Below are positions 9,340 through 31,652 of a DNA stretch of 64,000 nt, piece after piece. Each line of letters opens with the position of its first letter. Positions within the stretch are counted from its first letter, which is position 1. The notes beneath the pieces are model-generated. The model worked only from the letters and a program-made list of their open reading frames with translations. It did no database searches and was not told the origin of the DNA. Made by a program: the position numbers and the translations under genes. Source of the stretch: Escherichia coli (GTDB lineage Bacteria > Pseudomonadota > Gammaproteobacteria > Enterobacterales > Enterobacteriaceae); NCBI RefSeq assembly GCF_003790525.1, contig NZ_CP033635.1; one strand, 5' to 3'.

Positions 9340-9481
9340 GGTAAAGCCCTCACCGAAGCGAGGGCTTGAAGGAGAAGGGTTATGATGCGACTTGTCATCA
9401 TACTGATTGTACTGTTACTCATAAGTTTCCCAGCTTATTAACAGTCAGTCTCAGGGGAGGAGTCATCCTCCCTTACCCTTA
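9340..9481 (-). ncRNA. sibC: SibC-like antisense sRNA (antitoxin of the ibsC type I toxin-antitoxin pair); ends approximate
   Basis: Fully antisense to the ibsC mini-ORF; a sigma-70-like promoter on the minus strand (TTGACA, 17-nt spacer, TAATTT, plus-strand 9488-9516) and a minus-strand hairpin plus U-run near 9346-9365. K-12 places SibC (RygC) between serA and fau. Confidence 0.45.
9382..9441 (+). CDS. ibsC: Ibs-family type I toxin, 19-aa hydrophobic peptide
   Basis: ATG ATG CGA ... TAT TAA encodes MMRLVIILIVLLLISFPAY, preceded by SD gaaggaga; matches the Ibs toxin family pattern. Too short for the ORF track. Confidence 0.6.
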   Translation: MMRLVIILIVLLLISFPAY

Positions 9482-9487
9482 CTCACT

Positions 9488-9516
9488 AAATTAGGTTAAA
9501 GAATCAACGATGTCAA
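9488..9516 (-). promoter_or_regulatory. Candidate sigma-70 promoter for sibC
   Basis: Minus strand reads TTGACA-17 nt-TAATTT; predicted transcription start near plus-strand 9481. Confidence 0.35.
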
Positions 9517-10162: not shown

Positions 10163-10348
10163 AGGGAATCTCCGAGATGCCGCCGCAGGCTGTAACCCTT
10201 GAACCCTTGGTTCAAGGTGAATGTGTCGTCGCAGTTTTAAGGCTTCTCGGACGGACCGAGCATGCTCACCAACCGCGGAGCGCCACATTCTTGTGGTATG
10301 AAATATCGGCTCAGGGGACTGGCCCGCTTGCGAACATCTCAGAGAAAT
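10163..10348 (-). ncRNA. ssrS: 6S RNA (RNA polymerase sigma-70 holoenzyme regulator)
   Basis: Reverse complement reads AUUUCUCUGAGAUGUUCGCAAGCGGGCCAGUCCCCUGAGCC...GGCAUCUCGGAGAUUCCCU, which matches E. coli 6S RNA as I recall it; lies between zapA and fau. Ends within a few nt. Confidence 0.9.
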
Positions 10349-27202: not shown

Positions 27203-28936
27203 GTGAAACAACAGATACAACTTCGTCGCCGTGAAGTCGATGAAACGGCAGACTTGCCCGCTGAATTGCCTCCCTTGCTGCGCCGTTTATACGCCAGCCG
27301 GGGCGTGCGCAGTGCGCAAGAACTGGAACGCAGTGTTAAAGGGTTGCTGCCCTGGCAGCAACTGAGCGGCGTCGAAAAGGCCGTTGAGATCCTTTACAAC
27401 GCTTTTCGCGAAGGAACGCGGATTATTGTGGTCGGTGATTTCGACGCCGACGGGGCCACCAGCACGGCTCTAAGCGTGCTGGCGATGCGCTCGCTTGGTT
27501 GCAGCAATATCGACTACCTGGTTCCAAACCGTTTCGAAGACGGTTACGGCTTAAGCCCGGAAGTAGTCGATCAGGCTCATGCCCGTGGCGCGCAGTTAAT
27601 TGTCACGGTGGATAACGGTATTTCCTCCCATGCGGGGGTTGAACACGCTCGTTCGTTGGGCATTCCGGTTATTGTTACCGATCACCATTTGCCAGGCGAC
27701 ACATTACCCGCAGCGGAAGCGATCATTAACCCTAACTTGCGCGACTGTAATTTCCCGTCGAAATCACTGGCAGGCGTGGGTGTGGCGTTTTATCTGATGC
27801 TGGCTCTGCGCACCTTTTTGCGCGATCAGGGCTGGTTTGATGAGCGCGGCATCGCAATTCCTAATCTGGCAGAACTGCTGGATCTGGTCGCGCTGGGGAC
27901 AGTGGCGGACGTCGTACCGCTGGACGCTAATAATCGCATTCTGACCTGGCAGGGGATGAGTCGCATCCGTGCCGGTAAGTGCCGTCCGGGGATTAAAGCG
28001 CTGCTGGAAGTGGCAAATCGCGATGCGCAAAAACTCGCCGCCAGCGATTTAGGTTTTGCGCTGGGGCCACGTCTCAATGCTGCCGGGCGACTGGACGATA
28101 TGTCCGTTGGCGTGGCGCTGTTGCTGTGCGACAACATCGGCGAAGCGCGCGTGCTGGCAAATGAACTCGATGCGCTAAACCAGACGCGAAAAGAGATCGA
28201 ACAGGGAATGCAAGTTGAGGCCCTGACCTTGTGCGAGAAACTGGAGCGCAGCCGCGACACACTACCCGGCGGGCTGGCAATGTATCACCCCGAATGGCAT
28301 CAGGGCGTTGTCGGTATTCTGGCTTCGCGCATCAAAGAGCGTTTTCACCGTCCGGTTATCGCCTTTGCGCCAGCAGGTGATGGTACGCTGAAAGGTTCCG
28401 GTCGCTCCATTCAGGGGCTACATATGCGTGATGCGCTGGAGCGGTTAGACACACTCTACCCCGGCATGATGCTGAAGTTTGGCGGTCATGCGATGGCGGC
28501 AGGCCTGTCGCTGGAAGAGGATAAATTCGAACTCTTTCAGCAACGGTTTGGCGAACTGGTTACTGAGTGGCTGGACCCTTCGCTATTGCAGGGCGAAGTG
28601 GTGTCAGATGGTCCGCTAAGCCCAGCCGAAATGACCATGGAAGTGGCGCAGCTGTTGCGCGATGCTGGCCCGTGGGGGCAGATGTTCCCGGAGCCGCTGT
28701 TTGATGGTCATTTCCGTCTGCTGCAACAGCGGCTGGTGGGCGAGCGTCATTTGAAAGTCATGGTCGAGCCGGTCGGCGGCGGTCCACTGCTGGACGGGAT
28801 TGCTTTTAATGTCGATACCGCCCTCTGGCCGGATAACGGTGTGCGCGAAGTGCAACTGGCTTACAAGCTCGATATCAACGAGTTTCGCGGCAACCGCAGC
28901 CTGCAAATTATCATCGACAATATCTGGCCAATTTAG
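27203..28936 (+). CDS. recJ: Single-stranded-DNA-specific exonuclease RecJ
   Basis: 577-aa ORF, GTG start, DHH motif VTDHHLPG. Confidence 0.92.
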   Translation: MKQQIQLRRREVDETADLPAELPPLLRRLYASRGVRSAQELERSVKGLLPWQQLSGVEKAVEILYNAFREGTRIIVVGDFDADGATSTALSVLAMRSLGCSNIDYLVPNRFEDGYGLSPEVVDQAHARGAQLIVTVDNGISSHAGVEHARSLGIPVIVTDHHLPGDTLPAAEAIINPNLRDCNFPSKSLAGVGVAFYLMLALRTFLRDQGWFDERGIAIPNLAELLDLVALGTVADVVPLDANNRILTWQGMSRIRAGKCRPGIKALLEVANRDAQKLAASDLGFALGPRLNAAGRLDDMSVGVALLLCDNIGEARVLANELDALNQTRKEIEQGMQVEALTLCEKLERSRDTLPGGLAMYHPEWHQGVVGILASRIKERFHRPVIAFAPAGDGTLKGSGRSIQGLHMRDALERLDTLYPGMMLKFGGHAMAAGLSLEEDKFELFQQRFGELVTEWLDPSLLQGEVVSDGPLSPAEMTMEVAQLLRDAGPWGQMFPEPLFDGHFRLLQQRLVGERHLKVMVEPVGGGPLLDGIAFNVDTALWPDNGVREVQLAYKLDINEFRGNRSLQIIIDNIWPI

Positions 28937-29026
28937 CGTCATCTTCTCTATAAAAAAGAGCGTGGATTGGGTACAATCCCGCTCTTATCACCGCATTTTG
29001 ACTAGCTCAATAAAAGAAATCAGACC

Positions 29027-30125
29027 ATGTTTGAAATTAATCCGGTAAATAATCGCATTCAGGACCTCACGGAACGCTCCGACGTTCTTAGGGGGTATCT
29101 TTGACTATGACGCCAAGAAAGAGCGTCTGGAAGAAGTAAACGCCGAGCTGGAACAGCCGGATGTCTGGAACGAACCCGAACGCGCACAGGCGCTGGGTAA
29201 AGAGCGTTCCTCCCTCGAAGCCGTTGTCGACACCCTCGACCAAATGAAACAGGGGCTGGAAGATGTTTCTGGTCTGCTGGAACTGGCTGTAGAAGCTGAC
29301 GACGAAGAAACCTTTAACGAAGCCGTTGCTGAACTCGACGCCCTGGAAGAAAAACTGGCGCAGCTTGAGTTCCGCCGTATGTTCTCTGGCGAATATGACA
29401 GCGCCGACTGCTACCTCGATATTCAGGCGGGGTCTGGCGGTACGGAAGCACAGGACTGGGCGAGCATGCTTGAGCGTATGTATCTGCGCTGGGCTGAATC
29501 GCGTGGTTTCAAAACTGAAATCATTGAAGAGTCGGAAGGTGAAGTGGCGGGTATTAAATCCGTGACGATCAAAATCTCCGGCGATTACGCTTATGGCTGG
29601 CTGCGTACAGAAACCGGCGTTCACCGCCTGGTGCGTAAGAGCCCGTTTGACTCCGGCGGTCGTCGCCACACGTCGTTCAGCTCCGCGTTTGTTTACCCGG
29701 AAGTTGATGATGATATCGATATCGAAATCAATCCGGCGGATCTGCGCATCGACGTTTATCGCGCATCCGGCGCGGGCGGTCAGCACGTTAACCGTACCGA
29801 ATCTGCGGTGCGTATTACTCACATCCCAACCGGGATCGTGACTCAGTGCCAGAACGACCGTTCCCAGCACAAGAACAAAGACCAGGCCATGAAGCAGATG
29901 AAAGCGAAGCTTTATGAACTGGAGATGCAGAAGAAAAATGCCGAGAAACAGGCGATGGAAGATAACAAATCCGACATCGGCTGGGGCAGCCAGATTCGTT
30001 CTTATGTCCTTGATGACTCCCGCATTAAAGATCTGCGCACCGGGGTAGAAACCCGCAACACGCAGGCCGTGCTGGACGGCAGCCTGGATCAATTTATCGA
30101 AGCAAGTTTGAAAGCAGGGTTATGA
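29027..30125 (+). CDS. prfB: Peptide chain release factor 2, expressed through a programmed +1 ribosomal frameshift
   Basis: Frame 0 ATG at 29027 encodes [25 protein letters not shown] then in-frame TGA at 29102-29104 within CTT TGA C; the +1 frame from 29103 continues [16 protein letters not shown]... to 30125 (the 293-aa ORF in the track is the downstream part). Internal SD AGGGGG sits just upstream of the shift site. Confidence 0.9.
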
Positions 30126-30134
30126 GGAACCAAC

Positions 30135-31652
30135 ATGTCTGAACAAAACGCACAGGGCGCTGACGCGGTAGTCGATCTTAACAATGAACTGAAAACGCGT
30201 CGTGAGAAGCTGGCGAACCTGCGCGAGCAGGGGATTGCCTTCCCGAACGATTTCCGTCGCGATCATACCTCTGACCAATTGCACGCAGAATTCGACGGCA
30301 AAGAGAACGAAGAACTGGAAGCGCTGAACATCGAAGTCGCCGTTGCTGGCCGCATGATGACCCGTCGTATTATGGGTAAAGCGTCTTTCGTTACCCTGCA
30401 GGACGTTGGCGGTCGCATTCAGCTGTACGTTGCCCGTGACGATCTGCCGGAAGGCGTTTATAACGATCAATTCAAAAAATGGGACCTTGGTGACATCCTC
30501 GGCGCGAAAGGTAAACTGTTCAAAACCAAAACCGGCGAACTGTCTATCCACTGTACCGAGCTGCGTCTGCTGACCAAAGCACTGCGTCCGCTGCCGGATA
30601 AATTCCACGGCTTGCAGGATCAGGAAGCGCGCTATCGTCAGCGTTATCTGGATCTCATCTCTAACGATGAATCCCGCAACACCTTTAAAGTGCGCTCGCA
30701 GATCCTCTCTGGTATTCGCCAGTTCATGGTGAACCGCGGCTTTATGGAAGTTGAAACGCCGATGATGCAGGTGATCCCTGGCGGTGCCGCTGCGCGTCCG
30801 TTTATCACTCACCATAACGCGCTGGATCTCGACATGTACCTGCGTATCGCGCCGGAACTGTACCTCAAGCGTCTGGTGGTCGGTGGCTTCGAGCGTGTAT
30901 TCGAAATCAACCGTAACTTCCGTAACGAAGGTATTTCCGTACGTCATAACCCAGAGTTCACCATGATGGAACTCTATATGGCTTACGCAGATTACAAAGA
31001 TCTGATCGAGCTGACCGAATCGCTGTTCCGTACTCTGGCACAGGATATTCTCGGTAAGACGGAAGTGACCTACGGCGACGTAACGCTGGACTTCGGTAAA
31101 CCGTTCGAAAAACTGACCATGCGTGAAGCGATCAAGAAATATCGCCCGGAAACCGACATGGCGGATCTGGACAACTTCGACTCTGCGAAAGCGATTGCTG
31201 AATCTATCGGCATCCACGTTGAGAAGAGCTGGGGTCTGGGCCGTATCGTTACCGAGATCTTCGAAGAAGTGGCAGAAGCACATCTGATTCAGCCGACCTT
31301 CATTACTGAATATCCGGCAGAAGTTTCTCCGCTGGCGCGTCGTAACGACGTTAACCCGGAAATCACAGACCGCTTTGAGTTCTTTATCGGTGGTCGTGAA
31401 ATCGGTAACGGCTTTAGCGAACTGAATGACGCGGAAGATCAGGCGCAGCGCTTCCTGGATCAGGTTGCCGCGAAAGATGCAGGTGACGACGAAGCGATGT
31501 TCTACGATGAAGATTACGTCACCGCACTGGAACATGGCTTACCGCCGACAGCAGGTCTGGGAATTGGTATCGACCGTATGGTAATGCTGTTCACCAACAG
31601 CCATACCATCCGCGACGTTATTCTGTTCCCGGCGATGCGTCCGGTAAAATAA
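30135..31652 (+). CDS. lysS: Lysine--tRNA ligase
   Basis: 505-aa [36 protein letters not shown]; 9 nt downstream of prfB. Confidence 0.93.

Follow-up and report, generated by a model that had tools for sequence, protein, structure and literature searches.

Introduction

The programmed +1 frameshift in the RF2 gene prfB has been known since the 1980s, and the frameshift in dnaX is also stimulated by an internal Shine-Dalgarno (SD)-like element. The mechanism of the prfB shift, its textbook status and the SD-like element located 3 nt upstream of CTT are described in the literature (PMC12421855), and the shift itself, its efficiency and its response to the level of RF2 come from published experiments in E. 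coli (PMC12421855). The distribution of the site has already been surveyed in 12,753 genomes, where it was present in 64% and absent from 36%, and another published figure gives 87% of 259 genomes (PMC12421855).

Here we examined a prfB locus in a 64-kb stretch of DNA (the window) by following up a preliminary description which had interpreted a break in the reading frame as the classic autoregulatory RF2 frameshift. We are close to certain that the locus is E. coli prfB and that full-length RF2 is made from it only by way of a +1 shift at codon 25/26. The prfB site is an already known, textbook +1 frameshift that is publicly annotated, and nothing about it is new. Our own contribution consists of the sequence anatomy of the site, the RF2 identity of the two-frame product, a comparison with public annotation and the conservation of each element.

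Results

Anatomy of the Frameshift Site and Reading Frames

All of the sequence-level features that define a prfB frameshift site were found at this locus, and their positions are collected in Table 1. The preliminary description had placed an in-frame TGA after codon 25 and AGGGGG a few nucleotides 5′ of the slippery CUU. Both were recovered, with the G-rich hexamer ending 3 nt before the CTT at 29099-29101 and with frame-0 translation terminating at the TGA. Here prfB is not continuous in a single frame, frame 0 stopping at codon 26. Even when one mismatch was tolerated, AGGGGGNNNCTTTGAC was counted once in the 64-kb window, where shuffled sequences gave an expectation of 0.03. The CTTTGAC heptamer occurs 11 times on the two strands of the window, and the copy in prfB is the only one with a G-rich element upstream.

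Table 1. Features of the prfB locus, in coordinates of the window.
Feature	Position	Strand	Basis or remark
prfB frame 0, codons 1-25	29027..29101	+	Opens with ATG 29027; given by RefSeq as the first part of a joined CDS
Internal Shine-Dalgarno-like element AGGGGG, within the coding sequence	29090..29095	+	Read from sequence
3-nt spacer TAT (Tyr24) between SD-like element and slippery codon	29096..29098	+	Read from sequence
Slippery run CTTT (Leu25 codon CTT plus first base of the stop)	29099..29102	+	Read from sequence
Premature in-frame TGA, codon 26 of frame 0, RF2-specific stop	29102..29104	+	Sequence, translation
prfB +1 frame, codons 26-365 (...SLKAGL), plus stop TGA 30123-30125	29103..30125	+	Translation, 340 codons
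C directly 3′ of TGA; weak termination context UGAC	29105..29105	+	Read from sequence
Mechanical 293-aa ORF (+1 frame after its first ATG)	29244..30125	+	ORF-calling artefact, no separate gene
SPF motif, residues 205-207, RF2 stop-codon recognition tripeptide	29640..29648	+	Read from sequence
Ala246 codon GCA; canonical state, as in E. coli B	29763..29765	+	Sequence, strain comparison; PMC5373646
GGQ motif, residues 250-252, peptidyl-tRNA hydrolysis motif	29775..29783	+	Read from sequence
lysS (lysine-tRNA ligase), same-strand downstream neighbour, begins 9 nt past the prfB stop	30135..31652	+	

Across the gene, 25 stop codons fall in frame 0 and 13 in the third frame. The +1 frame has two, at 29046-29048 and at the end of the gene, and is free of stops from 29103 up to the terminal TGA. 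A frame scan found no ATG, GTG or TTG in the +1 frame from 29049 up to the ATG at 29244, which is the first +1-frame start past 29048. The mechanical ORF list at this locus holds a 25-aa and a 293-aa ORF, and the shorter-than-expected second entry appears because the +1 frame lacks a start codon before that ATG. The frameshift thus accounts for the 293-aa ORF in the way originally proposed.

The Two-Frame Product Is RF2

Joining 29027-29101 to 29103-30125 yields a protein of 365 aa that scored 525.9 bits against the NCBIfam model TIGR00020 (prfB), for which the curated cutoff is 370, with the match covering residues 12-362. Models of RF1 scored about 305 bits against the same product, below their cutoffs of 400 and 423. 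Aligning the two-frame translation to RF2, a check suggested in the preliminary description, matched the full 365 residues to the solved E. coli protein (PDB 1GQE), residues 1-365 to 1-365, without gaps and with one substitution. The alignment runs unbroken through the junction ...RGYL/DYDAK... (L25-D26), and the two-frame product is bona fide RF2.

RNA Families and Folding at the Site

A scan of the whole window gave no Rfam match at the frameshift site at the gathering threshold. Relaxing the threshold to E ≤ 10 over 28937-29300 likewise placed no Rfam family at the site, and the only matches, at chance level, lay in the recJ-prfB spacer. There was no sign of a stimulatory downstream structure in the 91 nt that begin with the SD-like element, which fold at z = −0.58. 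These negative results are expected, because the prfB signal is made up of short linear elements, not of a folded RNA.

Annotation and Gene Neighborhood

At identical coordinates, RefSeq annotates prfB as a two-piece joined CDS with the note ‘programmed frameshift’, and the same joined-CDS annotation is carried by K-12 derivatives and other strains. The gene order is recJ-prfB-lysS. The recJ-prfB spacer contains a hairpin, AAGAGCG-GGATTG-GGTA-CAATCC-CGCTCTT, at 28956-28986 (+) with a centroid energy of −20 kcal/mol, and the 94-nt spacer stretch that holds it folds at z = −2.77. The hairpin starts 20 nt past the recJ stop, with an A run before it; on the minus strand this becomes a hairpin with a T run after it, and a consensus scan flagged its inner stem as terminator-like on that strand. 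The hairpin may serve as the terminator of recJ or as one that acts in both directions. A scan of 28800-30300 for promoter and terminator consensus sequences found no promoter-like site in the spacer, and the sole promoter-like match in that interval lies inside the gene and is of a kind that occurs at chance frequency.

Elsewhere in the window, a Sib antitoxin RNA was detected at 9366-9516 (−) with 136.5 bits, opposite the annotated type I toxin gene ibsC at 9382-9441 (+), and the 6S RNA gene ssrS at 10165-10348 (−) with 139.8 bits. No tRNA genes were found in the 64-kb window.

Conservation Within E. coli

The 1198-nt locus was present as a single copy in 5425 of 5426 complete E. coli genomes at ≥95% identity, and a second copy of prfB was found in none of the 5426. 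The 32-nt core cassette (29076-29107) was unchanged in 5416 of these genomes, and the 70 nt around the site were recovered at ≥95% identity in 5422. The exact 70-nt version of the window was shared by 997 of the 5422 (~18%). The one common polymorphism nearby is at 29108, which is T in the window and C in most E. coli genomes; the two alleles give TAT and TAC, both Tyr27, and the change is therefore synonymous in the +1 frame. Over the 1198-nt locus the window is 100% identical to strain TCM3e1. Identity over the whole 64 kb is only 98.9% (712 mismatches and 2 gaps), which indicates that the window comes from an E. coli isolate other than TCM3e1.

A few records departed from this pattern. In E. 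coli NIPH17_0036 (NZ_AP024561.1), 26 nt of prfB are missing, equivalent to about 29367-29429 of the window, and the annotation lists the gene as a pseudogene, ‘PCRF domain-containing protein’. Because RF2 is widely considered essential and no second prfB copy was found, the loss is likely an assembly error. One prfB match fell on a record labelled as a plasmid, and this replicon has probably been mislabelled; the locus was missing altogether from one of the 5426 genomes, probably owing to an assembly gap.

Conservation Beyond E. coli

To follow the site across species, species-representative genomes were scanned by means of a degenerate pattern for DNA that could encode the RF2-specific peptide PFDxxGRRHT. 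This motif lies ~540 nt downstream of the site, which keeps the search unbiased with respect to the site. The scan returned at least 120 loci, and 110 of the 120 listed had sufficient upstream sequence for assessment. Loci were then classified by position; CTTTGA was required by the filter, and its invariance is therefore uninformative.

Among the matches listed, 83 of the 110 assessable loci had CTT TGA at the homologous place preceded by a short frame-0 ORF, and in 70 of these 83 listed matches a distance of exactly 180 codons separated the site from the downstream Pro of SPF, as it separates Asp26 from Pro206 in E. coli. Elements that the filter did not require were also conserved in the listed frameshift-type genes: the stop was followed by C in 79 of 83, in the SD-like block the five G positions had G in 82, 76, 69, 68 and 64 of 83, and the hexamer AGGGGG itself occurred in 46 of 83. 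Across the listed matches of the species sample the G-rich block peaked 3 nt before CTT, the same offset as in the window. The frequency of the site among the listed matches, 75%, falls between the published 64% and 87%.

The sequence AGGGGG TAT CTT TGA CTA was identical to that of the window in E. albertii, Citrobacter, Enterobacter, Superficieibacter, Photorhabdus and Providencia. Conservation in close relatives had been put forward as a further check on the preliminary reading, and all of the listed Enterobacterales relatives examined were identical over this stretch. More distant sites varied in detail. Two deltaproteobacterial MAGs (L025 and L067) carried CGAGGT ... CTT TGA T, with T and not C after the stop, and four Hymenobacter loci of the Bacteroidota (L013, L021, L037 and L074) had AGGAGG TAT CTT TGA C, with the site 178 and not 180 codons upstream of the SPF Pro.

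A continuous prfB ORF, starting ~205 codons upstream, was seen in 27 of the 110 loci among the matches listed, including members of the Propionibacteriaceae and Bifidobacteriaceae, which agrees with the published report that Actinomycetota lack the prfB frameshift motif (PMC12421855). One further locus (L098), counted among the 83, had CTT TGA A at 185 codons upstream. It lacked an SD-like element and had a start in frame at 205 codons upstream, and its CTT TGA is probably a coincidental match within a prfB gene free of the frameshift.

Discussion

Proposed Mechanism at This Locus

Following the published mechanism, a ribosome that has translated 25 codons of this prfB would hold tRNA-Leu on CUU in the P site with UGA C in the A site. 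RF2 alone decodes UGA, and UGAC provides a poor context for termination. Abundant RF2 would lead to termination and release of a 25-residue peptide. Where RF2 is scarce, the ribosome would wait, and AGGGGG would pair with the 3′ end (anti-SD) of 16S rRNA. The P-site tRNA-Leu would then slip from CUU to UUU, bringing GAC (Asp26) into the A site, and the rest of the 365-aa RF2 would be read in the +1 frame. RF2 would thereby limit its own synthesis. The preliminary identification as the classic autoregulatory RF2 frameshift is well supported by the TIGR00020 match, the 1GQE alignment, the RefSeq annotation, conservation of the cassette and the earlier literature (PMC12421855), and none of the data speak against it.

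Other Explanations for the Split Reading Frame

Insertion or deletion errors in sequencing or assembly look like a single-base frame break of this kind, and an inactivating mutation would leave a prfB pseudogene; the prfB of NIPH17_0036 is indeed annotated as one, though from a different lesion further downstream. Against such an origin, 5416 of 5426 independent complete E. coli genomes share the same break with identical flanks, and a break at the homologous codon recurs in 83 of 110 loci from several phyla among the matches listed. Moreover, there is one prfB per genome, leaving no intact paralogue as a substitute. Conservation effectively refutes an error or a pseudogene, to which we assign a vanishingly small probability. 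Mechanical ORF calling returns exactly two ORFs, which would invite an interpretation as two genes, a 25-codon small ORF followed by an N-terminally shortened RF2 of 293 aa starting from ATG 29244. However, codons 26-72 of the +1 frame (29103-29243), which have no start codon before them, match solved RF2 residue by residue and are covered by the TIGR00020 hit, and the 25 residues of frame 0 align with RF2 residues 1-25. The solved chains of E. coli RF2 have 365 aa, not 293, and the shorter form would lose residues 1-72. As these residues align with the solved protein, the two-gene interpretation was rejected, and its likelihood is negligible.

The break could instead be bridged by something other than a ribosomal +1 shift, namely transcriptional slippage or editing, readthrough of the TGA or insertion of selenocysteine. 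Transcriptional slippage and UGA recoding are known in other bacterial genes, which lends the idea some precedent. Readthrough in frame 0 would meet the next stop two codons on, at codon 28, and could not produce RF2, and it was rejected on this ground. Transcriptional slippage generally needs much longer homopolymer runs and is implausible on the T run here, which has only three bases. The SD-like element at its fixed 3-nt spacing and the C after the stop, both conserved, are signals that act at the level of the ribosome, and published work in E. coli assigns the event to the ribosome (PMC12421855). We therefore regard any of these routes as extremely improbable, and the ribosomal +1 frameshift as the reading to be retained.

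The value of the site lies in its use as a quality check, as a recoding event that defeats plain ORF calling was recognised here from raw sequence. A split prfB ORF should not be read as a pseudogene or as two genes. The site is, for its part, annotated automatically by NCBI’s pipeline.

Comparison With Known Systems

Relative to prfB of E. coli K-12, the locus in the window shares the core AGGGGG TAT CTT TGA C, the shift at codon 25/26, the gene order and the 365-aa product. Two differences were observed. K-12 has C at 29108 (TAC) where the window has T (TAT), a synonymous change at Tyr27, and K-12 RF2 has Thr246 (ACG) where the window encodes Ala246 (GCA). Thr246 is peculiar to K-12, whereas other E. 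coli lineages have the canonical and more active Ala246 (PMC5373646); the GCA codon thus implies that the window is not derived from K-12. The T at 29108 gives TAT in place of the commoner TAC three to six bases after the stop. It is conceivable, though we think it quite unlikely, that this T slightly shifts the balance between termination and frameshifting and, together with the more active Ala246, gives the lineage an RF2 set-point unlike that of K-12.

Other bacterial prfB sites share with the window CTT TGA at the homologous codon, the C that follows and a G-rich SD-like block 3 nt upstream (PMC12421855), whereas the spacer codon and the SD hexamer vary by lineage. The Bacillus-type site, for example, reads AGGGGG TCT CTT TGA C and the Hymenobacter-type site AGGAGG TAT CTT TGA C. 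In contrast, bacteria with a continuous prfB have no such site, as in 27 of the 110 loci among the matches listed, or 28 if L098 is counted with them. The frameshift in dnaX differs further, as it is a −1 shift at a heptanucleotide that has a stem-loop downstream and another SD spacing, whereas that in prfB is a +1 shift at a stop codon with no downstream structure indicated.
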